A stretch of 64,000 nt of DNA, from the NCBI GenBank assembly GCA_022616075.1, contig JAKEFK010000374.1:8560-72559 (forward strand), in the 5' to 3' direction. The translations under genes and the position numbers were made by a program. Each line of letters opens with the position of its first letter. Positions within the stretch are counted from its first letter, which is position 1. Positions 4,904 through 62,370 of the stretch are shown piece by piece. Origin of the DNA: a bacterium. Lineage in GTDB: Bacteria > Acidobacteriota > HRBIN11 > JAKEFK01. Under the pieces are notes generated by a model. That model saw only the letters and a list, made by a program, of their open reading frames with translations. It was not told where the DNA came from and ran no database searches.

Positions 4904-6979
4904 TTACTGGATGCGAAATCTCAGGAATTGGAGGCCGACAGGATCAGAATTTTCGAATCGAAGTGTAAGCAGGCGATGAGAGTCCTTAACTTGAGACCCG
5001 TTAATCGTGGCACGAATGGTTTTACGGTCACCCTCCAGGCGCGCCTCTCGAATCAGCGTTTCATCCGCCAGCAACTTCAGATGAATCACACGTGATTCTG
5101 TCAACAAACGCAACTCAACATCCAGATTTTGCTTTTCCGAAACGGCAGGTAGCAAAAGACGTGCTTCACTTTTTTTACAGACAAACAGCCTTTTTTCTTT
5201 CACGTCGTCCGGTTCCCAGTTTTCATACAAAAACAAAGAGAGAGCATCATCACGTCCTCGAAGCTCATAAACGGACGCCGTTAGCCTGGGTAACTCGTAG
5301 ACGAGGATTTCTTGTCCTCTATTTAGAAGTTGCGCGTCAGGAAAAAGCCGCAAAAGCAAAGTTTCATAGCCATTGGACTTACTGTATGGTGGAAACAGAG
5401 CAACATAACGCAAGTCGAAAAGGCTTCGGAATACGGGAGCGATTTCGCTATCTCGTTTCAAAAGAGAGTCCGTCACGATTCGATCCAGTGTGATCCGTCT
5501 GAAGATGCGCGCCACGGGAATCTCCGAGAAAAATCTGGTCTGTTGAAAAGGAACTCGTGAAACCCGTCCGTTGAACAGCTTTTGCCGGTGAATGATTTGG
5601 TACGCGACCTCCTTGGAAGCCATGCCATCAAAACGGTATGGAAGTGTTAAGAGAGAGGAACCAGGATTTTGTCCTATCGTATGAAAAACATGCGAATTTG
5701 TCAGAGGAAGCGTGTATACAGGTATAGGGGACAATTCAACGACTAACAGGAGAAATAAAACACCAATCAGAATCTTCGCTACACGGGAATTGTTCCTGAG
5801 CGCAACAAGAACTGTATAAGCGGCTAAGATCGCAATACAAAACGTGACGATGATACTGAATCGCGTGGGCACGCGTACATGGTTGATCAGGGGTATTTTC
5901 ATAAGCAACGAGTAGGGAAGAATGAATTCGAAAGAACCCAATCCCACTATAGGACCAAGTGACAGCAGCATAAAGAAAATGCCTACACCCGCAATCAACA
6001 AAAGCAGTTTCTGTCTTTGTCGAATAGCGAGAATGAATCCAATGGATCCAGTAATCAACGCCACTAACCCGGCCGACAACCTGGTATACCTGTCTCTCAC
6101 CACTTCCCTTGGCAAATGTTTTGCGATCCATGGATTCATCACTCCGATATTTACATAATCGTCAAGGCTAACCGCAGTTTTTCTGGCCAGATCTTCCGCA
6201 TCCATGGATCGGAGAATGCCTGCCTGCTGGTCCTTGTAAAAGCGAATTAAAATCGGTGTTAAACAAATAATACCGATGACGGCAGCCAATAAAACATTGC
6301 GCAGCAAAGTGATTTTCCTCCATTCGGGTAGAAACAACATGCCTGCCAGCAACAATATTCCAAGAATCAAAATCAGATATACGCTGTAGTACTGATTTGA
6401 ATAATGGGCCAACGCAAAGAAGAACCCGAGCGCAGCAGCATAACGGAGCCTGGCTGTATCTACTAGCCGAAAAAAGCTCCAAAGCCCGAGTGGAATCCAT
6501 TGAGTGATGGCGAAATTCACATGGCCTCCCATCCGAACCATACGGAATGGGCAAAACGCGAATGCGATCGCGGCAAAAAGGGCCGCAACAGAACTTTTTG
6601 TCAAGTCCCGCACTAACAACCATGTGCCAAAGGCCGTAAGAAACGTAGAGAGCAAAATCGCAAGATTGGTCTGTGCAATATCGTTGAAAAAAGGAGAGAA
6701 TAGCAAGCCGGTTACACTGTTAAACTCCGTATAAGAGTGGAGTGCGAGGCTGGTTCCTATGGGAAAGAAGATAGAATCCGTGTAGTAGGGATCTTCGCCT
6801 CCCAAAATCTGTTGCCGGAACACGAAATTATTCCAGGGAAATTGCCATGCATCCATACCGCTGCCGATTAAGCGATCAGATAAGTGAAATGGGGCCGGAT
6901 AACTAAACAGAATTGTTAACAGTAGAAGCGAGAGTGCAGCGAAAGTGGGATTCTCTAAAGAAAATTTACGTTTCACCAT
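4904..6979 (-). CDS. Large polytopic membrane protein with C-terminal soluble domain (GT-C/YfhO-like glycosyltransferase candidate)
   Basis: 691 aa. About 12 hydrophobic segments in the N-terminal 420 aa, then a soluble C-terminal region. No diagnostic catalytic motif recognised. Confidence 0.55.
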   Translation of the reverse strand: MVKRKFSLENPTFAALSLLLLTILFSYPAPFHLSDRLIGSGMDAWQFPWNNFVFRQQILGGEDPYYTDSIFFPIGTSLALHSYTEFNSVTGLLFSPFFNDIAQTNLAILLSTFLTAFGTWLLVRDLTKSSVAALFAAIAFAFCPFRMVRMGGHVNFAITQWIPLGLWSFFRLVDTARLRYAAALGFFFALAHYSNQYYSVYLILILGILLLAGMLFLPEWRKITLLRNVLLAAVIGIICLTPILIRFYKDQQAGILRSMDAEDLARKTAVSLDDYVNIGVMNPWIAKHLPREVVRDRYTRLSAGLVALITGSIGFILAIRQRQKLLLLIAGVGIFFMLLSLGPIVGLGSFEFILPYSLLMKIPLINHVRVPTRFSIIVTFCIAILAAYTVLVALRNNSRVAKILIGVLFLLLVVELSPIPVYTLPLTNSHVFHTIGQNPGSSLLTLPYRFDGMASKEVAYQIIHRQKLFNGRVSRVPFQQTRFFSEIPVARIFRRITLDRIVTDSLLKRDSEIAPVFRSLFDLRYVALFPPYSKSNGYETLLLRLFPDAQLLNRGQEILVYELPRLTASVYELRGRDDALSLFLYENWEPDDVKEKRLFVCKKSEARLLLPAVSEKQNLDVELRLLTESRVIHLKLLADETLIREARLEGDRKTIRATINGSQVKDSHRLLTLRFENSDPVGLQFLRFRIQ

Positions 6980-17577: not shown

Positions 17578-18492
17578 TTATTCCACTTTCATCAAAGCAT
17601 CGCCAGGTCCGAACAAATAGCCCATCAGCTCACCGGCAATATAAACAACGGCCGCAGGAATCAATAAAGGAAACGTTCGGACATATTTGCCTACCCGGTG
17701 TTTCTTTTGCAACACTCTGGCAGAAATTCTCGCCAGCAGCAAGGCCGGAAGCGCAGGTGAAACCAGAGTATAAATAAAGCGCTTTCCGGGCGGCATCACT
17801 TTCCTGCGGGCGCCGGCATACGCGCGGCTGAATAAATAGCGTTGGCCCAGATAATATCCGTATGGAAACGGACCTCGATGATACACAACCATTGCGGGCA
17901 CAGATTTTAAGATGGCACCCTCCTCTGCAAGTCTAGAGTATAGAAACGCCTCCCAATAACCTTCCTTGAGCTGAGATAGATGCTTTAAGAGAATCTCTTT
18001 GCGAAAAGCGACGTTGTTCCCGGGTAAATCATAAACATTTCCCTGCGGCATCGGTGGCATGTAAGCGTTGTACTCCACAAAATAAGTGACCCAATCTCGA
18101 AGACGTACGTAGTTATCATCCTGAACCGTGCCTCCGATTGCTGCAACTTGAGGATCGAATGAGTTTGCAATAGTGTTCACCCAGTTTTTTGCTGCAGTGC
18201 AATGTTCTTCTATGATCGCAACGAAATCTCCACGAGCATTTTCTACTCCAATTCTTCGTAACTCCGGAATCGTTTTCCTTGAATCCTGCGGAAATATTTT
18301 TACGAAAGGATATTTTTGCTGGAGGCGATTCCGGGTTCCTTCGCCGTGACAATCGACAACAAGCACTTCAAAATCGGGCTCATCTTCTTGTTGAGCGAGT
18401 GAAGCGATGCAATCATCGACGAAAGGTGGGCCCACAACCGAAGCGACAACCACCGAAACTTTCGGGGTCAAACGATCAAGAGCTCCAGACAT
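17578..18492 (-). CDS. Glycosyltransferase family 2, paralog of 16651-17574
   Basis: VSVVVASVVGPPFVDDCIASL. IIEEH. Similar C-terminal basic/hydrophobic tail. Confidence 0.7.
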   Translation of the reverse strand: MSGALDRLTPKVSVVVASVVGPPFVDDCIASLAQQEDEPDFEVLVVDCHGEGTRNRLQQKYPFVKIFPQDSRKTIPELRRIGVENARGDFVAIIEEHCTAAKNWVNTIANSFDPQVAAIGGTVQDDNYVRLRDWVTYFVEYNAYMPPMPQGNVYDLPGNNVAFRKEILLKHLSQLKEGYWEAFLYSRLAEEGAILKSVPAMVVYHRGPFPYGYYLGQRYLFSRAYAGARRKVMPPGKRFIYTLVSPALPALLLARISARVLQKKHRVGKYVRTFPLLIPAAVVYIAGELMGYLFGPGDALMKVE

Positions 18493-19195
18493 CAGTTTTT
18501 GGATCCCAGAATGGACCGGTCAGCCCAATCTGTCCGAAGATTTCCACCATCTCTTCTGCGGCAGGACGTCTTGATTCCACCGTTAAACGATTTTCGTACC
18601 ATTGCAATGCAAGAAACCAGAGCTGATGCAGATTCAAAATGGGACGCTTCGGAGTCCCTTTGGATTCGCACCACCGGTCGACATTCTCTTCCGACCGGAA
18701 GAGAAGCATTGTGGATCACGTAAAGATAACATCCTTCCACCAAAGAGCAGCAGGTACAGCGAAGTGCACCGCACATTCCTGCGGCACCACAGAACCATTT
18801 TTCACTTCAAGCAGGATCGGCTCATTCGTATAACCATCCGTGGCATTTACAATTGCATCCTTTTGCAGGGCAGCAGCAACGCCCAATCCGTCCCAGATAC
18901 AATTTGCAAAATAAGACTTCCCTTCAATCTCCACGCGGAAGGAAGTTGGTATACCGGAAAAAGGGGGCGCCATGCGGATTCGCGAAGGATCCTGAGGTTC
19001 TGGAACAAGAAGGCGTTTCGCGTGCAATCGCTGATACGCCTCGTCCACTTGATCATTTGAAACTCCAAGCATCCGGGCAACTTCGGCTGAGGAAGGTGCT
19101 TTTGTTGTTTCCGCGATCGTCTGATAAATCTGCAGTTTTACTCTTGTATCAAAATCCACGAATTCATCATATATGAGTACCAAAGTATTGAGCAA
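18476..19195 (-). CDS. MerB-family (organomercurial-lyase-like) protein interrupted by an in-frame UGA at 18718-18716; candidate selenoprotein or pseudogene
   Basis: The 159-aa and 77-aa ORFs are in one frame, separated by a single TGA. FANCIWDGL resembles MerB WCALDTL (Cys96/Asp99). ECAVHF resembles MerB CCHVHFF. Confidence 0.5.
18684..18705 (-). promoter_or_regulatory. SECIS-like mRNA hairpin: 9-bp stem UUCUCUUCC/GGAAGAGAA with GGUC tetraloop, starting 11 nt 3' of the in-frame UGA
   Basis: Perfect complementarity read directly. The loop sequence and its distance from the UGA are as in the E. coli fdhF SECIS minimal hairpin. Confidence 0.45.
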
Positions 19196-21885: not shown

Positions 21886-24800
21886 TTACTTTGCGTCTTT
21901 GCGACTTTGCGTTGAAGATTGATCGATGTGCCGAAGACCCTCGCGAGCGGTTTCATTTTCCGGTTCCAACTCGAGTACCTGCATGAAAAGCTCCTGTGCG
22001 CCGAGTATATCTCCCTGATTCAGGATTTCGCGGGCGGCGCTCAGGATGTTTTCCACTTCGCTGTGCCGCAGCTGATGTTGCAGAGTTTCTAACTCCACTT
22101 CGGTAATCTTCAAATCGTCTTCTGTAAGGGACCCCGTTTTGTTGATATCTATTTTCGGACTTCTGATTCGCTGGTGTTTTTCAGGAAGCACTCGATGAAA
22201 GCTCTCTAAAGCGCCAAGTGCTCCCTCACGGTCGCCTGATTCCAAATACTGCAGACCCTTCTGAAGAATCACTCCCAGATCGGCCTCCTTTTGCTTTTTT
22301 ATTTCCACCGACTCGGCAAAATCTCTCAAAACGGTTTCATACTCCAATAACAGTAAAGACCTGGAAAATAAACGATCCATGCGGGCGCGCATTCTGGATA
22401 TATCCCCTGATTCAATTTCAATCACCAGCATCGGCAACTCATCTATAATGCTGTCTCCATCTTCCGCATAAGCGGTTCGGCTTGCAGTCTCCTTCAAACG
22501 AATCAATAAATCCGGCAAATGTTTAAACTCTCTTTTTACGACAAGTTTCACAACGGCGCGTATCGTTTCAAGCACGTTCCGGTTTTCGGCTTCCGCTGCT
22601 TCTATCTGCGCTCTCAACTGCATCGCGGGTTCCATTTCCGGCTGCTGATCCAAAACTTGATCCAGCTTTTCGAGCGCTTGATGGTAAAGTCGTTGATGAT
22701 AAAGCAATGCCGCTTCTTCCAACTCTCCCTGGATGCTAGTCCGGAACGCTTCATCCTTTTGTATTTCAGCATCTAACTTATTAGAAACATAACGAACCTG
22801 TTCGGCCAGATCGTCGAAAGAAAATTCTGCCAGCGCTTTCCTGGACTTATCCAGTTTTCGGTGCGCTTCCTCGAAGTTGCCATAGAAAATTAGCTCTTCC
22901 GCCTCGGCCAGCATAGCAATAATGGATAGGCGGATTTGTCGCTCTTTTTTCAGACGCTGCTGAGCTTGCTCAATCCATTCTTTCAGATAAGGTTCATCCG
23001 ACAGCGAGCTTGCTTTTTTCCAGCATTCGATGGCTTTCTGCCATCTGTGCCTGTCATAGTATTCTTTTCCTTTTTGAAGCGCGGACTGGAGGCGCTGGGC
23101 AGTGTGCTGCGCGTTGATCGCTTCTTCAATGGAACTTTTTAGTTCCAGGGCTTCCTGTTCAACAACATCTTTTTCCAGAAGGGGAGAAATCCTTTCCAGG
23201 GCTTCGGCATATGCACCCTGCTTATATAATCCCTTGATTTTTCTTAATTCTTCCGATACGTCTTCAAGATGTTTTTGTTGTTCGCGCGTGTGAAGAAGGA
23301 TTTCAGCTTCAAGAGTTTCAATCTGTCTCTCCCATTCGATCAGGCGATACCCCGGTTGAATCGACTTCAACAATTTTTCCACCTTGTTCTGCGCTTCCTG
23401 CCAATGTTCTTTCAACACGAGCGAGTAACACTCCTTCAATTGCCGGAGCAGCTCTTCTTGAATGTAGAACTCTTCTCTTAAATGGTTCTCCGCGTCGCTT
23501 AGCGCTTGCTGTATTTCCTCCGAATCCGGAAATAGTTGCAAGATTTCGTTCCAGCATTCCATGGCACGTTCCCATTCAAGCCCGGAAGCGAACTCTTGCG
23601 CCTCCTGCAACCTCGCTCCGCGATATGCGCTCAAAATTTCTAACCGAAGTTCGTCCGCTTCCGGCAAAGAGATTTGACTGCGAAGTGTGTCGATCCTGTT
23701 CAGGGCATCAACATAATGGCCCGAATCCAGCAAATTTCTGGTTTCCGAAAAGGCCTCCGTAAGCAATTTGTCCCGCTCAAATAGTTTTTCGGCCGCTGAC
23801 GTTTCAATTTCACCGAATACCGATTGATGCGGCTCCAACCAGCCGAATGGATCTTTTGTCAACAACTTATTCAAGATTCGAGGGACCTGATCATATTGTT
23901 CCGCCTGAAAGGCAGACTCCAGGGATACGACTGCTTTTCGGATCCGATCGATTTCCTTCCGGCAAGTATCGATTCCCAAATTTGCATGCAGTTTTGTCAG
24001 CAGCTTCGAGGCGACCTCAAAATCACAAAAAGAAAGCGGCTGCACGGCTAACTCCAGCCCCTGTTTGATCTGATCTTGAACTTTCTCCCACCTGCTTTCC
24101 AGAATCTGATCGCGCAACTCTTTAGCGGCTCGATGCGAAGAATTTTCTTCCAGAATTTCCTGGGCAATTCCAAAAGCCTGCTCCTCGTCTCCCTGCGCAA
24201 ACAGCGACCGGGCCTCATCCATTTTCCTGTTGTACTTCTCTGTAAATTCGTCTTCGCGGGCAAGCTGAATCCGTTGCTGCATGCTGATGATGTCCGGGTC
24301 ATTTGGTTGCAAATGCCACGCGGACTCCAAGCTGGCCATGGCCGCCAGGTAATCCTTCCGCTCCAGCCGGTCTTCGGCTTCCTGCAAGTAAGATCCGACC
24401 GCTTGTTTTTTCCCCGCGATCAACTGGTCCTGCAGTTTTTTGAGCTGATTGAGAACGCCGGTACCTTCCAGTTGAATATTACCGATTCGTTCCAGGACGA
24501 ACTGCGCCTGCGCAAAATTCCCTTTGCGGATAAAGAGTCTGGTGTGGCGAATGTCCCGCTTTGTCTTTTCGGAAAGCGCGTTTTTTAACAGTTTTTTCCA
24601 GCGCGGGTTGTCCGGTTGATCTTTCAACAAGGATTGAAGGACCTTGATCGCTTGAGCGAATTTATGCTCCGCAATCAACTTGTGAGTCAATTGCTCACTT
24701 GCCTGCAACTGCGGATCAGAGACAGGCTGACCAAATGAAGCGAGATCGTTCAGTATTTCCTCGGCGCTCTGGTAGCGGTTCTCGGGCTCTTTTTGCAAAG

Positions 24801-26445
24801 CCTTCATGATGATCCGTTCGAGATCAGCAGAAAAAGCCGGAACGATCTCAGAAGGTCTGGGAGGATCCGCTTTTAAATGAGCATAAATGACGGCTACAGG
24901 AGTCGGACCATCGAAAGGAAGACGTCCGGTTAACAAGCTGTACATGAGAACGCCTATGGAATACAAATCGGCGCGCGCATCGACCGCTTTTTCTTCAAAC
25001 ACTTCCGGAGCCATGTAATGCGGAGATCCAAGAAGCGACCCGGTCTGCGTAATCCTGGAATAATCAGCCGATAAAGAGATGCCGAAATCCATTATTTTCA
25101 GGCGCGACCGCACATCGATCATGATGTTTTGCGGTTTCAAATCCCGGTGAATAATGCCGGCGCGGTGCGTTTCCCGGATCGCATGCAATACTTGCTCTAG
25201 AATCGGGATCGATGTTTCCGCCGGAAGCCGTCCTTGCGTACGCATGTAATCTGCAAGTGTCCTTCCTTCTACAAACTCCATGGACACGTAATGGACACCG
25301 TTTTGCTCGCCGATGTCGTAAACCCGGCACACATTGGGATGAGTTACTTTGCGCGCAAGGATAACTTCCCTTTTGAATCTGGCCAGTGTTTTTTCGTCTT
25401 CGGCGATGTCGAGTGAAACGGTTTTTAAAGCAACTGGGATTTCCAAAATCTTATCCAGCGCTTTGAAGACCATTCCCATTTCGCCGTGACCGAGTTTGCC
25501 TTCAATTAAGTAGCGTCCCGCAAAGACTTCGCCCGTTTCCGGTTCGGAAAGAAGGGGTACAAGCGGAACCGGTTGAGTCGTAGACAACTCCAACTCCGCC
25601 AGAAATTCGTCGATCGTCTGATGACGTTCTTCGCGACGTTTTGCCAGAGCTTTTAAAATTAGACGGTCTAACGATTCCGGAAAGGTTCCCGCGGGAAAAT
25701 AAAAGGAAGGCGGACTCGGCATTTCATGCGCATGTTTCATGAAATAACCTTGAGGACTCTTCGAGTAAAAGGGCAGATTCCCGGTTAACATTTGATAAAA
25801 AGTTACGGCGAGCGAATATATGTCCGATCGACCGTCCAACGTCTGTCTTTCTCCGGAAAGTGTGCACTGTTCCGGACTGCAGTATTCCGGTTTTCCGATG
25901 AACAGATTGACCGCCGTTAATTGCAAGGAAGTCTCCAACAGAGGTTTCGCTATTCCAAAGTCAATTACCTTTGTGACTTCCGGTTCCCGGTCATTTAAGA
26001 GAATGAGATTATCCGGAGAAATATCCCGGTGGATGATTCCATTTTGGTGAGCACACTGTAGTCCGGATGCCGCTTGCCGCATGATCCTGATCGCGTCCGA
26101 AATCGGAATTCGTCCGACTCTGCGGATCCTGTGCCATACACTCTCTCCCCTGATCAATTCCATCACCATAAAAAAAGAATCGGTTTCGAGAGTTCCAAAT
26201 TCGTAAAGCTGCACGAGATTCGCGTGACGAAGTTTGGTGAGAATCTTTGCTTCACGGATGAAACGATCGATAAAACTGCTGCCGCCGGCTAGCCGGGCGT
26301 GAATCACCTTGATCGCTCGCTCTTCGTCCAGAAATGCGTGGCGTGCCCTGTAGACGGCGCCCATTCCGCCTTTTCCTAAGAGTTCGAGGATTTCGTATTC
26401 CCGGATCCTGGAACCGATCAAAGAGTCTTTTTGCGGCTCAGCCAT
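21886..26445 (-). CDS. Giant tandem Ser/Thr protein kinase (two Hanks-type kinase domains) fused to about 1000 aa of TPR/helical repeats
   Basis: Domain 1: GKGGMGAVY, AIKVI, HRDISPDN, DFG, SPE. Domain 2: GHGEMGMVF, ALKTV, HRDLKPQN, DFG, APE. Confidence 0.85.
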   Translation of the reverse strand: MAEPQKDSLIGSRIREYEILELLGKGGMGAVYRARHAFLDEERAIKVIHARLAGGSSFIDRFIREAKILTKLRHANLVQLYEFGTLETDSFFMVMELIRGESVWHRIRRVGRIPISDAIRIMRQAASGLQCAHQNGIIHRDISPDNLILLNDREPEVTKVIDFGIAKPLLETSLQLTAVNLFIGKPEYCSPEQCTLSGERQTLDGRSDIYSLAVTFYQMLTGNLPFYSKSPQGYFMKHAHEMPSPPSFYFPAGTFPESLDRLILKALAKRREERHQTIDEFLAELELSTTQPVPLVPLLSEPETGEVFAGRYLIEGKLGHGEMGMVFKALDKILEIPVALKTVSLDIAEDEKTLARFKREVILARKVTHPNVCRVYDIGEQNGVHYVSMEFVEGRTLADYMRTQGRLPAETSIPILEQVLHAIRETHRAGIIHRDLKPQNIMIDVRSRLKIMDFGISLSADYSRITQTGSLLGSPHYMAPEVFEEKAVDARADLYSIGVLMYSLLTGRLPFDGPTPVAVIYAHLKADPPRPSEIVPAFSADLERIIMKALQKEPENRYQSAEEILNDLASFGQPVSDPQLQASEQLTHKLIAEHKFAQAIKVLQSLLKDQPDNPRWKKLLKNALSEKTKRDIRHTRLFIRKGNFAQAQFVLERIGNIQLEGTGVLNQLKKLQDQLIAGKKQAVGSYLQEAEDRLERKDYLAAMASLESAWHLQPNDPDIISMQQRIQLAREDEFTEKYNRKMDEARSLFAQGDEEQAFGIAQEILEENSSHRAAKELRDQILESRWEKVQDQIKQGLELAVQPLSFCDFEVASKLLTKLHANLGIDTCRKEIDRIRKAVVSLESAFQAEQYDQVPRILNKLLTKDPFGWLEPHQSVFGEIETSAAEKLFERDKLLTEAFSETRNLLDSGHYVDALNRIDTLRSQISLPEADELRLEILSAYRGARLQEAQEFASGLEWERAMECWNEILQLFPDSEEIQQALSDAENHLREEFYIQEELLRQLKECYSLVLKEHWQEAQNKVEKLLKSIQPGYRLIEWERQIETLEAEILLHTREQQKHLEDVSEELRKIKGLYKQGAYAEALERISPLLEKDVVEQEALELKSSIEEAINAQHTAQRLQSALQKGKEYYDRHRWQKAIECWKKASSLSDEPYLKEWIEQAQQRLKKERQIRLSIIAMLAEAEELIFYGNFEEAHRKLDKSRKALAEFSFDDLAEQVRYVSNKLDAEIQKDEAFRTSIQGELEEAALLYHQRLYHQALEKLDQVLDQQPEMEPAMQLRAQIEAAEAENRNVLETIRAVVKLVVKREFKHLPDLLIRLKETASRTAYAEDGDSIIDELPMLVIEIESGDISRMRARMDRLFSRSLLLLEYETVLRDFAESVEIKKQKEADLGVILQKGLQYLESGDREGALGALESFHRVLPEKHQRIRSPKIDINKTGSLTEDDLKITEVELETLQHQLRHSEVENILSAAREILNQGDILGAQELFMQVLELEPENETAREGLRHIDQSSTQSRKDAK

Positions 26446-33096: not shown

Positions 33097-33146
33097 GTGC
33101 TATATTTTAGTATAAACTAAAATAAAGTCAAGAAAAAAAATCCTCT

Positions 33147-46136: not shown

Positions 46137-46236
46137 CTTTTCTCGCCCCTTATTAAGGGAGGAGATCAAGAGGGGGTTTGTATAATTTGGTAGTTCCCAA
46201 CCTCCGTTTAATCCCCTCCTTCATAAGGAGGGGAAA
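46137..46236. repeat. Family E structured repeat copy 2
   Basis: CCCCTTATTAAGGGAGG … AGAGGGGGTTTG … CCCCTCCTTCATAAGGAGGGG. Confidence 0.6.
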
Positions 46237-50677: not shown

Positions 50678-51721
50678 ATGAAGCAGGTTCTAGCGACTCA
50701 TGATCTGGATTATGTCCGTTCGATTCTTCGTGAGTACTACGGGCGTCATCTAAAAAGTAAATCCGATCTATCTCAAAAAGCCTGCTGCATAGACGAAAGT
50801 CAAAAACGTTTCAAAGACATCCTCGAATTGATTCCCGAAGACGTAAAAGCGCGTCATTATGGATGTGGTTGTCCGGTTCCGGAAGATGATCTGACGGGAT
50901 TGCGAGTCCTGGATTTAGGATCGGGAGCGGGTGTGGATGCTTTTATATTGTCTTATCTTGTCGGACCATCCGGATTTGTTTATGGCATCGACATGACGGA
51001 TGAACAACTGGAGATTGCTAACGGCTATGCTCCGACCGTGATGAAACGCTTTGGTTACAGTGAAACGAACGTCCATTTTGAGAAAGACTTTATCGAAGTT
51101 GCAGGATCGATTCCGGATCAATCTATCGACATTGTTATTTCTGATTGTGTAATCAATTTGTCTCCGCGAAAGGATCTTGTTTTCAAGACGATTTTTCGTG
51201 TGTTGAAGGATGGCGGAGAATTTTATGTTTCAGACATTGCTTCCGACCGCCGAGTGCCTGATTCGATTCGAAATAATCCAGAAATGCTCGCTGAATGTCT
51301 TGGTGGCGCTGAATATGAGCACGATTGGTTCGACGTTATGAAGGATTGTGGTTTTCAAGATCCGCGGACTGTAAGCCGGATGGAAGTTCAAAGAGATGTT
51401 CTTGGTGAGCCAATTGTATTCTACTCCATGACCGTTCGCGGTTTCCGTTTTGTAGATCCGCTCGATCGGCGTTGTGAAGACTACGGCCAGATCGCCACAT
51501 ACAAAGGAAACATTCCCGGTCTTCGCGCGCGATTCGCGCTGGATAACCATCACATATTTGAATCTCATCGACCTGTGCCCGTTTGCCGCAATACCGCGCG
51601 AATGTTGCAGGAATCCAGACTCGGCCGCTATTTTGACGTCACGCCCTCCATCAGGCATTTTGGATTGTTTGACTGTGCCCCAACAACGAATAGTACAGAT
51701 ACCAAATCACCTTGTTGCTAG
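50678..51721 (+). CDS. arsM: ArsM-like SAM-dependent (arsenite) methyltransferase
   Basis: VLDLGSGAGVDAF SAM motif. Conserved-cysteine blocks KACCIDES, YGCGCP and DCVINL, as in ArsM. Confidence 0.65.
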   Translation: MKQVLATHDLDYVRSILREYYGRHLKSKSDLSQKACCIDESQKRFKDILELIPEDVKARHYGCGCPVPEDDLTGLRVLDLGSGAGVDAFILSYLVGPSGFVYGIDMTDEQLEIANGYAPTVMKRFGYSETNVHFEKDFIEVAGSIPDQSIDIVISDCVINLSPRKDLVFKTIFRVLKDGGEFYVSDIASDRRVPDSIRNNPEMLAECLGGAEYEHDWFDVMKDCGFQDPRTVSRMEVQRDVLGEPIVFYSMTVRGFRFVDPLDRRCEDYGQIATYKGNIPGLRARFALDNHHIFESHRPVPVCRNTARMLQESRLGRYFDVTPSIRHFGLFDCAPTTNSTDTKSPCC

Positions 51722-52816
51722 ATGAATCTTCTCCTTTCGCTCGCAGCCCTGTTTGTTTCTTATGCCAACGGCACAAACGATAACTTCAAAGGGGTCGCAA
51801 CTCTTTATGGCGGCAAAGTTTTCAGTTACAAAAAAGCATTAGTCTGGGCTTCTGTAACAACTTTTGTCGGATCGATTCTCAGCTTCATTCTGGCTACTAA
51901 GTTATTAGCAATATTTTCCGGAATAGGAATCGTGAGTCAGACAACTTTGCAGAATCCCGCATTCCTTGCCACTGTGGCTCTTGCTGCTGCCTGCACAGTT
52001 ATGCTGGCAACCCTCCTTCGTTTTCCGATATCCACAACGCACAGCCTCCTGGGTGGATTGGTAGGAAGCGGCCTTGCAAGCGGAGGACTTACCTCATTCG
52101 CTGCATTAGGAAAGTTATTCTTTCTACCGCTTCTCATTGGGCCGGCTGCAGCCCTAATTTTTACAGCAGTCCTCTATGCGATTTTTCACAGGGTTCGCGA
52201 AATGGCAAAAGTTGAAAGCTCGTATTGCCTGTGCGTTGGAGAAACCCAGGAGGTTTTAGTTGGCACACCTGGTCTGCTAACGATTCGTTCGACCGGCGTC
52301 AGGATATCAATGGAAGACGAAAAGGATTGCCGCTTGATTTATCCTGGCCGTTTCTTTGGTTGGAATCTGCAAAAATTGATGGATCAAGCTCACATCCTCA
52401 GCGCGGGCGCAGTTTCATTTGCGCGGGGCCTGAACGATACACCTAAGATCGCGGCTTTATTGCTGCTCGTTCCTTCTATCACCCCGAAGAGCGGTTTGTT
52501 GCTTGTTGCACTTTTCATGCTGGCGGGCGGAGCCATTCACTCTCACAGGATCGCACGAAGAATGAGTTTTGAGGTGACTGAAATGAATCCCGGACAGGCC
52601 TACACCGCAAATCTTGTAACAGCCCTTCTGGTTATTTCAGGTTCTTTGATGGGCTTTCCGCTTTCTACGACTCATGTTTCTTGCGGCGCGTTGTTTGGCA
52701 TCGGCATGGTGAATGGAACCGCAAGCAAAAATACGATCGCGCAAATCCTGTTTGCCTGGGTAATCACCCTTCCTACAGCAGCAATTCTCGCTGCCCTGTT
52801 CTGGTTAGTTCTGTAG
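51722..52816 (+). CDS. PiT-family inorganic phosphate (or arsenate) transporter
   Basis: ANGTNDNFKG and ARGLNDTPK (GxNDxxN/K signature of both PiT halves). Its ATG directly abuts the arsM stop. Confidence 0.75.
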   Translation: MNLLLSLAALFVSYANGTNDNFKGVATLYGGKVFSYKKALVWASVTTFVGSILSFILATKLLAIFSGIGIVSQTTLQNPAFLATVALAAACTVMLATLLRFPISTTHSLLGGLVGSGLASGGLTSFAALGKLFFLPLLIGPAAALIFTAVLYAIFHRVREMAKVESSYCLCVGETQEVLVGTPGLLTIRSTGVRISMEDEKDCRLIYPGRFFGWNLQKLMDQAHILSAGAVSFARGLNDTPKIAALLLLVPSITPKSGLLLVALFMLAGGAIHSHRIARRMSFEVTEMNPGQAYTANLVTALLVISGSLMGFPLSTTHVSCGALFGIGMVNGTASKNTIAQILFAWVITLPTAAILAALFWLVL

Positions 52817-53012: not shown

Positions 53013-53057
53013 CGAAGGATAGGGCGGGCCTCTCTGCCCGCCCTACAACCAGTTCAG

Positions 53058-57548: not shown

Positions 57549-58436
57549 ATGAAGTATCAAAAGTTGTACACACTTTTTCTGTTTCTTATTGTTTTCGCAT
57601 TTCAGCTTACGGCGTGCGCGCAGGACCAACCGAAAGCTGAAACAGCGGCAAAGCCTTCCATGACCCATGAACAAATCGCGACCTACATTCGCAAAGCTTT
57701 TAATGTGCCTGCCAATGTGACCATTACCGTAAAGGAAAATGCCGAATCGAAAGCGATTCCCGGCACTTACGCAGTCAATGTGGAATTCAAAGGAGAGAGA
57801 GGCAGCCAGACTCAAGAAGCGTGGATCACAAAAGAGAACATGCTTGTTATCGGACGCGTAATGGACATGTCGGTTGATCCGTACAAAAAGAACCAGGAAA
57901 AAATTGTATTGGGAACAAATGTTCCGGTAACAGGCGCGCAGGACGCAAAAGTCACCATCGTTGAATATTCCGATTTCCAGTGCCCTTATTGCAGCAATGC
58001 GCACGTAACGGTGAAGGATATGCTGAAACAATATGAGGGGAAAGTGAAGGTCGCTTACAAGCATCTTCCTCTAACCAACATTCACAATTGGGCCGAAGAA
58101 GCTGCCATTGCTTCAGTATGCGTTCACAAACAGAAACCGGAGACATTCTGGAAACTTTCCGATTATTACTTTACAAATCAGAAAACGATTACCAAAGAAA
58201 CCCTCGGCGCCAAACTGCAAGAATTTTCGACGCAGGAAGGCTTGAATCATGAAGAGCTAAAAAAATGCATGGCGGATCCTGTGTCCAAACAGCAAGTGAC
58301 CGCCGATACGACAGAAGCTGGAAGTCTTGGTTTGAGCTCTACACCTTCTTTCTTTGTAAACGGCCGAATGGTAGTCGGAGCGATTCCAGCGGATCAGTTC
58401 AAGCAAATCATTGATGAGGCCTTAACGACCCAGTAA
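57549..58436 (+). CDS. DsbA-family thiol:disulfide oxidoreductase lipoprotein
   Basis: Lipobox LTAC. CPYC active site. Confidence 0.8.
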   Translation: MKYQKLYTLFLFLIVFAFQLTACAQDQPKAETAAKPSMTHEQIATYIRKAFNVPANVTITVKENAESKAIPGTYAVNVEFKGERGSQTQEAWITKENMLVIGRVMDMSVDPYKKNQEKIVLGTNVPVTGAQDAKVTIVEYSDFQCPYCSNAHVTVKDMLKQYEGKVKVAYKHLPLTNIHNWAEEAAIASVCVHKQKPETFWKLSDYYFTNQKTITKETLGAKLQEFSTQEGLNHEELKKCMADPVSKQQVTADTTEAGSLGLSSTPSFFVNGRMVVGAIPADQFKQIIDEALTTQ

Positions 58437-58443
58437 AGGTCAC

Positions 58444-59346
58444 ATGTCAAGTTCCGATCTGCCGCTTCCCCCTCCCCAAAAAGGAGGGGGAGAGGGGCGG
58501 GATATTCCTGTTTTAAGAAACGCTCTTATTCTCACCTCTCTCTTTTTCGTTGTTGAAGCCATTGCAGGATTTGTTACAAACAGTCTCTCCCTGCTTTCGG
58601 ATGCCGGCCACATGCTTTCGGATATTCTTGCGTTGCTTGTCTGTTTGTATGCCGCAAACATGGCACGACGCGCTCCAACTGCCGAAAAAAGTTATGGCTA
58701 TTACCGCACAGAGGTATTAGCAGCTCTATTTAATGGTCTGGTTCTTTTCTTAATGATCGGATTCATTTACTACGAAGCGATGTTCAGGATTTTTCAACCT
58801 GTGGCGGTCAGCAGCGCTGGGGTGATCGCGGTCGGTGGAGCAGGCCTCGTTGTGAACCTGCTATCAGCCTGGATGCTTCACGGACACGATGATTTGAATG
58901 TGAGAGGCGCCTACTATCACGTAATCATGGACGCGCTCAGCTCGCTCGGCGCATTGATCGCAGGAATCCTGATCTATGTGACCGGCTGGCCGGTGTTTGA
59001 TCCGTTGTTGAGTTTCCTGATCGGCGCTCTCGTGCTTTTCAGCGCATGGTCTCTGATCCGCGACTCTATCAATATCTTAATGGAAGCAGTCCCGAAGCAT
59101 CTGAATCTAACGCGCATCCGGGAAGAGGTAAAAAGGTTGAATGGTGTTCAGAATATTCATGATTTGCACATCTGGAGCATCGGTTCGAAAGAGCATGCAG
59201 TTTCAGCCCATCTGGTGGTCAATCCCGGTTGTGATCCCATTGATGTGCGCACTCGAGTGGAGGATCTTCTTCGCCGCGCTTTCCATTTGGAACACACCAC
59301 CCTGCAGGTGGAAGTGCAGGAGGATTGCATCGAACCGCACGAATGA
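58444..59346 (+). CDS. Cation diffusion facilitator (CzcD/ZitB-like) metal efflux transporter
   Basis: SLLSDAGHMLSDILAL (HxxxD). Six TM plus a C-terminal cytoplasmic domain with His/Asp. Confidence 0.8.
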   Translation: MSSSDLPLPPPQKGGGEGRDIPVLRNALILTSLFFVVEAIAGFVTNSLSLLSDAGHMLSDILALLVCLYAANMARRAPTAEKSYGYYRTEVLAALFNGLVLFLMIGFIYYEAMFRIFQPVAVSSAGVIAVGGAGLVVNLLSAWMLHGHDDLNVRGAYYHVIMDALSSLGALIAGILIYVTGWPVFDPLLSFLIGALVLFSAWSLIRDSINILMEAVPKHLNLTRIREEVKRLNGVQNIHDLHIWSIGSKEHAVSAHLVVNPGCDPIDVRTRVEDLLRRAFHLEHTTLQVEVQEDCIEPHE

Positions 59347-59687: not shown

Positions 59688-60350
59688 ATGCGGCTTTTCT
59701 CTGTTTTTCTGTTCTTACTTTTCACAGTTCAAACACAGGCACACGATGTATCTGGCACCGTAGAAGTGCTGTTAAAAGGAGAAAAGAAGAAGACCGATCT
59801 TTCCTCAGTCATCATTTATCTGGATCCGGTTTCGCAATCGATTATTCCGGAAGAAGCATTGAAGAAGACCTTCACGATGTCCACAAAAAACAAGCAATTC
59901 GCACCACGCGCTCTTGCGGTTCCCGTTGGGGCAAAGGTCCAGTTTCCCAATTTTGATTCGATTTTTCACAACATCTTTTCTGTTTCCTCACCCAATCAGT
60001 TCGACCTTGGGCTTTATAAGGGAGGCGGCAGCAAGACTCAATCCTTTCAGAAACCGGGAGTCGTAAAAGTATTCTGCAATGTGCATCCGCAAATGTCCGC
60101 TACCATCGTTGTCAGCGCGTCGCCCTATTACACCATCGCGGATCAAGCCGGCAACTTCATGCTTGGCGACATCCCGAATGGAAGTTTTCAGCTACGCGCC
60201 TTCGCCGAGGAAGGACAGACCGTGAAAAAGATCGACGTAGGAGAGAAAGCTTTGCAGGTCCTCTTGACGATTGACGGCAGGACTTTCAAAAAATTGCGGC
60301 ACAAAAACAAATTCGGAAAGGATTATTCCTCTACTGATGAACGCTATTAG
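59688..60350 (+). CDS. Secreted cupredoxin-like plus carboxypeptidase-regulatory-like domain protein (putative Cu-binding)
   Basis: Signal peptide. FCNVHPQM (C-x2-H-x2-M type-1-copper-like ligands) with an upstream His. 14-nt overlap with the downstream kinase gene. Confidence 0.55.
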   Translation: MRLFSVFLFLLFTVQTQAHDVSGTVEVLLKGEKKKTDLSSVIIYLDPVSQSIIPEEALKKTFTMSTKNKQFAPRALAVPVGAKVQFPNFDSIFHNIFSVSSPNQFDLGLYKGGGSKTQSFQKPGVVKVFCNVHPQMSATIVVSASPYYTIADQAGNFMLGDIPNGSFQLRAFAEEGQTVKKIDVGEKALQVLLTIDGRTFKKLRHKNKFGKDYSSTDERY

Positions 60351-62370
60351 TAACAGGCGCGGCCTGAGTCTCAATATAAAATTTTTCCTGCTGACAGCGC
60401 TGATCATTGTTCTGCTCATCGCTGTCACCATTCTGTTCAGCTCGCGCAGAGCCACCGCGCTGGCTCATGAGACCATTCGCTCTGATTTGAAACAAACACT
60501 CTCCGTGTTTGAAACGTTTCAAAAAGACCGTTACGAAAAGTTAAAGATTGCCAACAAAATCATTGCTCAGAATCCTTACATCCAGGCGTACATTCAAGAA
60601 TCGGATTCCAATAGCATCCTGGATCTTGCCAAACAAACCGAAGAGACGATCCGAAGCGATTTCGTGCTCCTGACAGACGCGGACGGAATTGTTTTGGCGC
60701 GCACTGATAAACCGGGAGCAACCGGCCAGAACTTCGCCGATGTGCCTCTCGTTGCAGGAGCGCTGGATGGGGAAGAAGTCAACGGTTTAATGCTGGAGAA
60801 CCAGAATCTGTACCATGCAATTGCCGTTCCTGTCGTAACGCAGGACATTATTACTGCAGCTCTTGCTATCGGTTATTCGATCAACGACACGCTCGCTATT
60901 CAAATCAAAGAAATGACGCACTCGGAAACCGGTTTCTTCATTGAAAAAGATGGCGTATCGCTTATAGCCAGCACGATCACAAGCGAAAAAGAAGATTTGA
61001 CCCGATCTCTTACGAATGCCGGTAAACCGGATGAGCCCTTTCAATTTCAAATGGGCCCGGAAAAATACGTGGGAGTTTACAGGCCGCTGAAGAATCTTGA
61101 CGGCAAGATGCTGGGAAGATTTGTAGCTTTCCGTTCGCTGGATCGCGAGTTGTATGGTTTCCGGCAGTTTCAAAAGAACATTCTGATCGTGGGCCTGGGA
61201 ATGATGGTTCTGGCTTTCATTTTGAGTTTTCTGGGCTCGCGGCGGATCACCGGTCCGCTTCGCAATTTGACGGATGCGGTGAATGAAGTCAAAGAAGGAA
61301 ACTACGACGTCCCGATTGAAACAACGTCTCGCGATGAAGTGGGAATTCTTGCTGAGTCCTTTCGAAAGCTGCTGGCTCAGCTTAAAGAGAAACAGCAGCT
61401 CGTTGAGTATCTTTCGCAACAGCCGACTGTACCCGGAGCTCCCACGATTGGACCGGGGCAAGTATCTTCGAAACACCAAACAACATCACCATCACAATCC
61501 TCCGTTTCCATGAGCTCAATCGGACCCGGCTCGGTGATCGCCAACCGTTATGAAGTGCAATCGATCCTGGGGACCGGAGGAATGGGAGTCGTGTTGAAAG
61601 CCCTCGACCGGCAGCTCGATGAAGTGGTCGCCCTGAAACTTCTAAAAGGGGAAGTCTTTCAGCAGGATCCCGTCGCTCTGGACCGTTTCAAACAGGAATT
61701 AAAGCTGGCGCGCCGCATCACACACCGCAATGTTGTCCGGACGTTCGATTACAGTGAGCTGGATAATTACTACGTTATTAGTATGGAATATGTAAAAGGG
61801 ATTACTTTAAAACAGCTGATTCGCCAGCGAGGGATGCTTCCTGTCCGGATCGGACTGCAGATCGGCAAACAGATTTGCAGCGCGCTGGATGCAGCGCACG
61901 AGAGGGGAGTCGTTCACCGCGACATGAAACCTCAGAATGTGCTTCTGGAAAGCACGGGAGACGTGAAGATCATGGACTTTGGCATCGCGCGCGTGGCCGA
62001 TATGAAAGGTATGACCTCCACCGGAACAATCATGGGCACACCCGACTACATGTCCCCGGAACAGGCTCAGGGTCTGGATATGGATCAACGCACAGACGTC
62101 TATTCTACCGGAGTGGTTCTATTCGAAGTATTCACTGGAAGGCTTCCCTTTTCCGCTGATTCTGCGCTGGTAGTGTTAAACAAACACATCCGTGAAGCTC
62201 CGCCAAAACCCACCAGCTTCAATCCAGCCTTGCCTCCGGCGCTGGAACAAGTGCTCCTACGTTCACTCGAAAAAGATCCGGATCAGCGTTATCAGAAAAT
62301 CTCACTCTTATATGAAGACCTGGAAGCCGTCTCAGCAAAAATCTCCACCGCGCAAGAACGAATCGCGTAG
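60337..62370 (+). CDS. Receptor Ser/Thr protein kinase: periplasmic sensor domain, TM, HAMP, Hanks kinase
   Basis: Start trimmed to MNAISNRRG. HAMP block LRNLTDAVNEVKEGNYDV. GTGGMGVV, ALKLL, HRDMKPQN, DFGIA, SPE. Confidence 0.8.
   Translation: MNAISNRRGLSLNIKFFLLTALIIVLLIAVTILFSSRRATALAHETIRSDLKQTLSVFETFQKDRYEKLKIANKIIAQNPYIQAYIQESDSNSILDLAKQTEETIRSDFVLLTDADGIVLARTDKPGATGQNFADVPLVAGALDGEEVNGLMLENQNLYHAIAVPVVTQDIITAALAIGYSINDTLAIQIKEMTHSETGFFIEKDGVSLIASTITSEKEDLTRSLTNAGKPDEPFQFQMGPEKYVGVYRPLKNLDGKMLGRFVAFRSLDRELYGFRQFQKNILIVGLGMMVLAFILSFLGSRRITGPLRNLTDAVNEVKEGNYDVPIETTSRDEVGILAESFRKLLAQLKEKQQLVEYLSQQPTVPGAPTIGPGQVSSKHQTTSPSQSSVSMSSIGPGSVIANRYEVQSILGTGGMGVVLKALDRQLDEVVALKLLKGEVFQQDPVALDRFKQELKLARRITHRNVVRTFDYSELDNYYVISMEYVKGITLKQLIRQRGMLPVRIGLQIGKQICSALDAAHERGVVHRDMKPQNVLLESTGDVKIMDFGIARVADMKGMTSTGTIMGTPDYMSPEQAQGLDMDQRTDVYSTGVVLFEVFTGRLPFSADSALVVLNKHIREAPPKPTSFNPALPPALEQVLLRSLEKDPDQRYQKISLLYEDLEAVSAKISTAQERIA

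Follow-up and report, generated by a model that had tools for sequence, protein, structure and literature searches.

The closest described systems to the gene that we report here are MerB (Escherichia coli plasmid R831b; PDB 3F0P, 3F2F, and 1S6L), MerB2 of Bacillus (PDB 5C17), and SaoL, a MerB-like "selenocysteine-assisted organometallic lyase" (NF040728; Haft and Gwadz, bioRxiv 10.1101/2022.07.06.499078; J Bacteriol 2023). In SaoL, the selenocysteine (Sec, or U) of a C-U motif is aligned to Cys159 of MerB, and the protein is a marker for a nine-gene SAO locus that occurs in about 52 strictly anaerobic species, mostly Firmicutes; the genes of this locus include the SaoA/P/B ATP-binding cassette (ABC) transporter, an efflux pump, as well as SaoE, SaoC, SaoT, and SaoD (Haft and Gwadz, bioRxiv 10.1101/2022.07.06.499078). 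In both a 2022 review and a 2026 review, SaoL is the sole entry for a MerB-like selenoprotein. Here, we analyzed a stretch of 64,000 nucleotides ("the window") from an acidobacterial genome (contig JAKEFK010000374.1 of assembly GCA_022616075.1), which contains another member of this superfamily with an in-frame UGA codon. We consider it about 85% probable that 19159 to 18476 on the minus strand is a single intact MerB-family gene of 227 residues and that UGA codon 148 is decoded as Sec, by means of a hairpin just downstream, at the position of Cys159.

Like SaoL, the encoded protein belongs to the PF03243 superfamily, has a UGA codon at the position of Cys159 of MerB, and retains the equivalents of Cys96 and Asp99. 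The preliminary description of this locus was not aware of any selenoprotein in the MerB family; this was out of date, since SaoL carries Sec at the same catalytic position. However, the protein from the window scores just 45.3 bits against NF040728, whose cutoff is 140 bits, and only residues 12 to 138 align. The Sec motif also differs: it is T-U-[A/S]-T-M instead of C-U, and Sec is preceded by Thr in 79 of 80 related loci and by Ala in the other one. The clade is further set apart from SaoL by its invariant W-C motif and its longer C-terminal tail; it is found in 236 species-level genomes of other phyla, many of them from soil, and it has no SAO neighborhood (81 loci examined, about 7 kb on each side).

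The likeness to MerB and MerB2 comprises the fold, PF03243, the Cys-x-x-Asp motif, and the second metal-ligand column. In contrast to MerB, Sec, which is a chemical analog of Cys but not the same residue, is predicted to replace Cys159, there is no equivalent of Cys160, and the proteins are just 15 to 19% identical. The protein falls far below the cutoffs for the MerB equivalogs (39.2 bits versus 193 for PRK13239, and 29.5 bits versus 200 for NF033555), and no model in NCBIfam release 20.0 claims either of the two half-length open reading frames (ORFs). Also, these genes are chromosomal, in uncultured bacteria from soil or sediment, rather than being carried by plasmids or transposons, and merR, merT, merP, and merA are not linked to them. 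Judging from these sequence comparisons, the clade is distinct from SaoL, and relative to the literature that we compared (Haft and Gwadz and the 2022 and 2026 reviews), it is a second kind of predicted MerB-like selenoprotein beside SaoL.

Conservation of the UGA codon and of the reading frame

The preliminary description joined two ORFs, which are in the same frame and are separated by one TGA (18718-18716), into a single protein. The minus strand from 19195 to 18476 is indeed one frame, and this TGA is the only internal stop before the terminal TGA at 18478-18476. The proposed start codon (TTG at 19195) did not hold up: relatives begin with M/V-D-F-D-T, so we chose the GTG at 19159 as the likely start, which gives 227 codons. 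In NCBI's annotation, the locus is split into MCI0412547.1 (147 amino acids, "hypothetical protein") and MCI0412546.1 (77 amino acids, "alkylmercury lyase family protein"). At JGI, the truncated ORFs are labeled "MocR family regulator," a name that is due to the winged-helix-like region at the N terminus.

We scanned one genome per species and found relatives in 236 species-level genomes. The 80 best loci, which we fetched, are all from metagenome-assembled genomes. They belong to Thermoanaerobaculia, Holophagales, Vicinamibacterales, Anaerolineae, Chloroflexia, Chthoniobacterales, Planctomycetota, KSB1, Krumholzibacteriia, Armatimonadota, Methylomirabilota, and Gemmatimonadales. The gene is thus present in about ten phyla, including Acidobacteriota, Chloroflexota, Verrucomicrobiota, Planctomycetota, and Gemmatimonadota, and many of the genomes are from soil. 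Closed metagenome-assembled chromosomes are also among its carriers (OY970330.1, OY970373.1, and OY969111.1).

The codon after a conserved Thr is TGA in all 80 loci and is never TAA or TAG. By comparison, the true terminators of the family's genes are a mixture (40 TGA, 26 TAG, and 10 TAA). As for whether orthologs retain both the UGA and the hairpin, which the preliminary description had proposed to check, the TGA is kept in all 80 loci; the hairpin is kept in 78, and in the other two loci the contig ends too soon after the TGA. A conserved in-frame tail of 75 to 86 residues follows the TGA in 76 of the 80 loci.

The preliminary description also raised the possibility that the locus is decaying. 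Codon-position divergence does not indicate any decay, as it is equal on both sides of the UGA: in the 67 codons after it, pairs of sequences differ on average by 0.56 at codon position 3 and by 0.21 at positions 1 and 2, and before it, the corresponding values are 0.58 and 0.25. Two codons past the UGA, the residue is always Thr while the codon varies freely (ACC 40, ACG 35, ACA 2, and ACT 2); therefore, the stretch from the UGA to the next AUG is translated. Among 29 full-length members of the family, the residues T150, M151, L152, F154, R155, S156, E157, W163, and C164, all past the UGA, are invariant.

Protein databases contain the two parts separately. A search of 5.8 billion proteins identified 1,657 relatives, and the best 120 of these cover only 61 to 63% of the query; 119 of the best 120 end at ...D-I-[IV]-[YF]-T. 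With the 77-residue downstream ORF as the query, 700 proteins were returned, and the best 120 are all stand-alone ORFs of 75 to 86 residues.

Two of the 80 loci have further changes downstream. At L028 (around 6731-6739), the codon for the invariant Trp163 is TGA instead of TGG, 14 codons past the first TGA, and at L044 (after about 10550), the conserved frame is lost 36 codons past the Sec codon. Either of these could reflect decay or an assembly error.

The hairpin downstream of the UGA

The hairpin comprises the stem arms UUCUCUUCC (18705-18697) and GGAAGAGAA (18692-18684), which form nine perfect base pairs around a GGUC loop (18696-18693). It begins at the 11th nucleotide past the UGA, and the loop is at nucleotides 23 to 26, counting the U of UGA as 1. 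This agrees with the preliminary description, which had compared the hairpin to the selenocysteine insertion sequence (SECIS) of E. coli fdhF. The sequence that we used for the fdhF SECIS has exact matches to fdhF in about 5,400 E. coli genomes. These matches confirm that the GGUC loop of fdhF is at nucleotides 22 to 25. Both hairpins start about 11 nucleotides past the UGA, and both lie inside the coding sequence. They differ in that the hairpin in this family is a continuous helix of 7 to 9 base pairs, with a predicted stability of -9.1 to -12.0 kcal/mol versus -4.2 kcal/mol for the minimal hairpin of fdhF. Also, the hairpin in this family is nearly identical across phyla, which is unusual among bacterial SECIS elements.

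The window contains six distinct perfect hairpins with a stem of at least 9 base pairs and a loop of 3 to 8 nucleotides, versus about 1.5 in shuffled sequences, and the one at 18705-18684 is the only one that lies directly behind an in-frame TGA. When the hairpin is folded in its 71-nucleotide context, the energy is not unusual relative to shuffles (z = -1.4), so the significance of the hairpin comes from its conservation and not from the single sequence.

Across 79 sequences, the hairpin's codons show no synonymous change: Leu at +5 is CTC in 74 of 74, Arg at +7 is CGG in 79 of 79, and Ser at +8 is TCG in 79 of 79. The flanking codons have 1.3 to 1.85 bits of synonymous entropy, in contrast to the nearly frozen codons of the hairpin (CTC TTC CGG TCG GAA), and third-position divergence is 0.15 in the hairpin codons as compared to 0.56 to 0.58 elsewhere. 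The 12-nucleotide core of the hairpin occurs 78 times at the expected place and never elsewhere in 1.16 Mb of related loci. Two homologs that have Cys in place of Sec serve as a control: they encode the same peptide, MLLFR[S/T], but with other codons (CTG CTG TTC CGC TCG or CTC CTC TTC CGC ACC), and they have no hairpin. Because the element hardly varies, the argument that it is a SECIS rests on the frozen synonymous sites and on this control.

The variation that does occur is consistent with the stem. The tested structure has 89% of its cells paired, versus about 50% if the partner is slid. The outermost pair of the core is CG in 62 sequences, UA in 4, and AU in 1. Compensatory variants are AUCUUCC/GGAAGAU at L048 and UUCUUCC/GGAAGAA at four loci; at L048, changes from Leu to Ile and from Glu to Asp maintain the outermost pair of the core.

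Judging from this pattern of conservation, the hairpin is under selection as RNA and has the hallmarks of a SECIS that would be bound by SelB. In the proposed mechanism, it would act as a bacterial SECIS and would recruit SelB with Sec-tRNA(Sec) while the UGA is in the A site of the ribosome.

The window's other perfect hairpins of 9 to 10 base pairs include those at 33103-33124, 46212-46234, 53020-53045, and 58467-58491. According to the map of ORFs, the first three are between ORFs, where terminators are expected, and the last is just inside the 5' end of a cation diffusion facilitator gene (58444-59346).

The MerB fold and the catalytic position

With Cys in place of the UGA, the joined protein matches PF03243 with E = 1.6e-28 and 99.7 bits (the cutoff is 27), and the alignment includes positions 1 to 126 of the 126 in the profile and spans the UGA. 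A profile of the 29 full-length members matches MerB2 (5c17) with E = 2.9e-15 and matches E. coli MerB (3f2g, 3fn8, and 1s6l) with E of about 1e-6. In these alignments, the column with Sec148 corresponds to Cys159 of MerB, with T-U-A-T-M-L-L-F of the family aligned to F-C159-C160-H-V-H-F-F, and also to the catalytic Cys of MerB2. Y-A-N-C-x-W-D aligns with Y-A-W-C-A-L-D, so that Cys87 corresponds to Cys96 and Asp90 corresponds to Asp99. Cys87, Asp90, and Sec148 are all invariant in the family.

The preliminary description had placed the UGA roughly where MerB has Cys159, and the profile alignment bears this out. The alignment also supports its pairing of FANCIWDGL with WCALDTL of MerB. Its pairing of ECAVHF with CCHVHFF was wrong: C159-C-H-V-H-F-F of MerB aligns with U-S-T-M-L-L-F.

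Another question that it raised was whether homologs have Cys at the column with the UGA. By using the C-terminal part in a profile search against 1.84 billion cluster representatives, we obtained full-length homologs of 202 to 238 residues, and 7 of 10 distant homologs have Cys in this column. These seven (P0306, P0352, P0369, P0371, P0377, P0380, and P0384) have T/A-C-x-[ST]-[MIFL] around it, while the other three have Trp, Ala, or Gly.

We made an AlphaFold2 model for the homolog P0002, which is 57% identical to the protein from the window and has Gly at the Sec column. The alignment was anchored by the full-length homologs, and the model has a predicted local distance difference test (pLDDT) score of 95.9 and a predicted template modeling (pTM) score of 0.92. 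When compared to the PDB with Foldseek, its top 11 matches are all MerB or MerB2, with TM scores of 0.6 to 0.7 over about 196 columns. The N-terminal region of the model contains helices at 3-18, 24-31, and 35-47, and the columns that align with the MerB and MerB2 structures include this winged-helix-like region.

P0002 itself (847-1524 of L085, from Logan SRR28208100) is a side case. It has GGA (Gly) instead of TGA, with the hairpin intact (CTC TTC CGG TCG GAA GAG), and Ser replaces the equivalent of Cys96. P0002 thus seems to have lost both of its metal ligands recently; it could be an inactivated copy, a copy that has acquired a new function, or the product of an assembly error.

All 29 family members share W163 and C164; MerB has Ala at the position of C164 and no W-C motif. 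Cys164 may be an auxiliary or resolving thiol.

Proposed function

By analogy to the enzymology of MerB, the thiolate of Cys87 and the selenolate of Sec148 would coordinate the metal of an organometallic substrate, and Asp90 would protonate the carbon, so that the carbon-metal bond is cleaved. The default guess for the substrate would be methylmercury or aryl-mercury. Selenols have a low pKa and a high affinity for soft metals. Replacing Cys with Sec should therefore improve the capture of soft metals when the substrate's concentration is low but should also make release of the metal harder; the invariant Cys164 may help with this release. On the sequence similarity to MerB, the odds that the protein is a lyase with such a substrate seem to us about even. 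A dedicated role in resistance is not supported because the gene stands alone, with neither a mer operon nor an SAO locus.

Contrary evidence and alternative explanations

Several observations weigh against our interpretation. First, the hairpin has no counterpart of the bulged U in the fdhF element, and classical covariation is thin: the stem is nearly invariant, and the five sequences with compensatory changes all affect one pair of the core. Nor did the hairpin match any Rfam family, either at the gathering threshold across the whole window or at a permissive threshold within 18400-19000, where there were only chance hits (E of 4 to 7). Second, ARAGORN did not find tRNA-Sec in the 64-kb window or in the 80 related loci (1.16 Mb), and tblastn with E. 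coli SelA, SelB, and SelD did not find selA, selB, or selD in the same sequences; these results are uninformative, as linkage is not expected. Third, opal suppressor tRNAs that resemble tRNA-Sec insert Cys in some bacteria (PMC5389517). Fourth, all of the family members that we saw are from metagenome-assembled genomes, and none are from an isolate. Fifth, no mer genes are linked: in the 80 loci, tblastn with MerA, MerP, MerT, and MerR of the Tn501 type gave sporadic, generic hits at 6 loci, and none in the window. Finally, lyase activity and the substrate are predicted from homology at 15 to 19% identity to MerB.

We also looked for a second selenoprotein. A tblastn search with FdhF for one in the same genomes found nothing, which is also uninformative, and among those ORFs of the window in which a long in-frame extension follows a terminal TGA, there was no credible candidate.

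We considered four alternative explanations. The first is that the protein is a true selenoprotein but not a carbon-metal lyase: it could be a metal or metalloid sensor, a chaperone, or a thiol/selenol redox protein that is built on the MerB fold with the winged-helix-like region at its N terminus. The low identity to MerB, the lack of a linked mer operon or transporter, and the label of "MocR family regulator" would fit such a role. In Chthoniobacterales, the genes that precede it (DUF1573, rhodanese, and MauE) suggest sulfur or selenium chemistry and redox chemistry, and both MerB2 and the D99S variant of MerB bind copper (PDB titles; Haft and Gwadz, bioRxiv 10.1101/2022.07.06.499078). However, Cys87, Asp90, and Sec148 are all invariant, and the proton donor Asp90 would not be needed for metal binding alone. 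Furthermore, the winged-helix-like region is not peculiar to this family, as authentic MerB structures have it too. We view a function other than a lyase as unlikely.

The second is that the UGA is recoded without selenium. A near-cognate or suppressor tRNA, such as a tRNA-Cys of the SelC* type with a UCA anticodon, might insert Cys, Trp, or another residue, and the hairpin might stimulate read-through or be a SelB-like site. The literature describes Cys-inserting opal suppressors that mimic tRNA-Sec and also unusual suppressor-like tRNAs from Acidobacteria (PMC5389517), and homologs of this protein have Cys, Trp (TGG), or Gly (GGA) at the UGA column. However, the reported selC* systems are in anaerobic Deltaproteobacteria, Firmicutes, and Nitrospirae, which are not the phyla considered here (PMC5389517). 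The hairpin has the GGUC loop and the spacing of the fdhF SECIS, which binds SelB. If the inserted residue were Cys, then a Cys codon would do the same at no cost, and the Cys-containing relatives use one without any hairpin. SaoL also provides a precedent for Sec at this position. Altogether, selenium-free recoding is improbable.

The third is a split gene, in which ribosomes terminate at the UGA and reinitiate at the conserved AUG three codons later. The fragments of 147 and about 75 residues would then assemble, and the hairpin would couple termination to reinitiation. Gene callers predict exactly these two ORFs, and the codon at +3 is ATG in 78 of 79 sequences. However, L027 has ATC instead, and this column is Met or Ile in the contiguous homologs that have Cys, which implies that the Met is a structural residue. 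As discussed above, selection acts on the protein sequence that is encoded between the UGA and the AUG, with an invariant Thr whose synonymous codons interchange freely. Reinitiation would not explain why the stop is always TGA, and the break would strip the equivalent of Cys159 from both fragments. From the conservation data, a split gene is very unlikely.

The fourth, a pseudogene in which a nonsense mutation killed a MerB-like gene and the downstream frame is open by chance, could not be ruled out from one sequence alone and would fit with the two ORFs of the public annotation and with the occasional copies that seem to have decayed (L028 and L044), but it is excluded by the conservation data: all 80 species, which come from about ten phyla, carry the same TGA, the downstream codons diverge like the upstream part, nine residues past the UGA are invariant, and identities of 51 to 69% among related loci rule out a dead element that spread recently.

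Gene layout and genomic neighborhood

The features of the MerB-like gene that we interpret as encoding a selenoprotein are listed in Table 1. The family-specific tail, at residues 190 to 227 or so, has the motif WY.NRLT.ESRRP..EM..IF..GL.GPFWDP. The downstream glycosyltransferase gene overlaps the end of the MerB-like gene, which shows that the C-terminal extension sits within a compact operon; this glycosyltransferase is not a conserved neighbor at the other loci. A scan for promoters and terminators around the MerB-like gene gave results at or below chance.

Table 1. Coordinates of the MerB-like gene, its predicted elements, and the adjacent downstream gene within the window
Feature	Start	End	Strand	Comments
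Predicted MerB-like selenoprotein, coding sequence	18476	19159	-	GTG start at 19159; 227 codons including Sec148; TGA terminator at 18478-18476
N-terminal helical, winged-helix-like region (about residues 1-60)	18980	19159	-	Weak matches to GntR, LexA, and TrmB-type Pfam families
MerB catalytic domain, Pfam PF03243 (residues 67-189 from the GTG)	18593	18961	-	Residues 79-201 if numbered from the TTG start
Cys87 codon (TGT), equivalent of MerB Cys96	18899	18901	-	y-A-n-C-v-w-D aligned to Y-A-W-C-A-L-D; invariant in 29/29
Asp90 codon (GAC), equivalent of MerB Asp99 (proton donor)	18890	18892	-	Invariant in the family
UGA, predicted to be read as Sec (residue 148), at the position of MerB catalytic Cys159	18716	18718	-	From conservation and alignment
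Putative SECIS hairpin, 9-bp stem	18684	18705	-	GGUC apical loop at 18696-18693; -12.0 kcal/mol; the family's core is 7 bp (CUCUUCC/GGAAGAG)
Cys164 codon (TGC) in the W-C motif	18668	18670	-	16 residues past Sec; W163 and C164 invariant in 29/29
79 codons after the UGA	18479	18715	-	End of the MerB core and family-specific tail (about residues 190-227)
Family-2 glycosyltransferase gene (PF00535), downstream	17578	18492	-	ATG at 18492-18490, 14 nt before the stop of the selenoprotein gene

More broadly, the neighborhood is not conserved. The MerB-like gene in the window has an M48 peptidase gene on one side and, on the other, two family-2 glycosyltransferase genes and then a radical S-adenosylmethionine (SAM)/SPASM gene. 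When we clustered the proteins within about 7 kb on each side of 81 loci, no cluster was common to more than 11 loci, and there was no mer cluster. We considered a conserved operon but rejected it, as the only such arrangement is a DUF1573-rhodanese-MauE cluster that is restricted to the Chthoniobacterales. In this cluster, genes for a DUF1573 protein (with a CGC motif), a rhodanese, and a MauE-family membrane protein precede the MerB-like gene on the same strand, about 0.1 to 2 kb upstream (loci L037, L042, L047, L050, L052, L056, L061-L063, L065, L070, and L080). DUF1573 has been listed as a selenoprotein family with a UGC motif (PMC9312934).

Farther away in the window are a few genes that might relate to metals or metalloids. 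The plus-strand gene at 50678-51721 encodes an ArsM-like SAM-dependent methyltransferase, whose best NCBIfam match is the arsenite methyltransferase PRK11873 (173 bits versus a cutoff of 263 bits), and it is directly followed by a PiT/PHO4 phosphate transporter gene (51722-52816, plus strand). The ArsM-like gene, which is possibly related to organometalloids, is 32 kb away from the MerB-like gene. A pair of genes for metal and thiol homeostasis (57549-59346, plus strand), at a distance of about 40 kb from the MerB-like gene, encodes a DsbA/thioredoxin-like protein (PF13462 and PF01323) and then a cation diffusion facilitator metal efflux protein (PF01545).

The minus-strand gene at 21886-26445 encodes a protein of 1,519 residues with two N-terminal regions that resemble Ser/Thr kinases (HRDxKPxN and DFG were identified by eye), followed by a very long helical region of repeats that resemble tetratricopeptide repeats. 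A second kinase-like ORF is at 60271-62370 (plus strand). At 9 loci, a kinase cluster is found close to the MerB-like gene, probably because this family of kinases is so common.

Implications

If our interpretation is correct, then hundreds of database entries are halves of one selenoprotein: proteins of 147 amino acids that are annotated as "organomercurial lyase" or "MocR family regulator," and proteins of about 77 amino acids that are annotated as "hypothetical protein." A reference sequence with U148 would mend the annotation in at least 236 species-level genomes. That the SECIS is nearly the same in about ten phyla would suggest that the gene and its recoding signal have spread together by horizontal transfer. 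Because it is fdhF-like and so uniform, the SECIS may also permit direct expression in E. coli.

Haft and Gwadz described the use of Sec in organometallic chemistry for the SAO and HgcA systems, which are strictly anaerobic; the clade would widen this use beyond them. The clade's carriers are abundant uncultured bacteria of soil and sediment, including Thermoanaerobaculia and other Acidobacteriota, Chloroflexota, and Chthoniobacterales.

It is still debated which enzymes, other than those of the classical mer operons, degrade methylmercury in soils and sediments. A Sec-containing relative of MerB in dominant soil phyla would be a concrete candidate for degradation that does not depend on mer. 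It is possible, but doubtful, that these stand-alone chromosomal genes represent a second, previously unrecognized, and much more widespread clade of Sec-dependent MerB-like lyases that demethylate methylmercury, or another organometal or organometalloid, independently of any mer operon. If so, such a demethylase would link the selenium and mercury cycles in soils.

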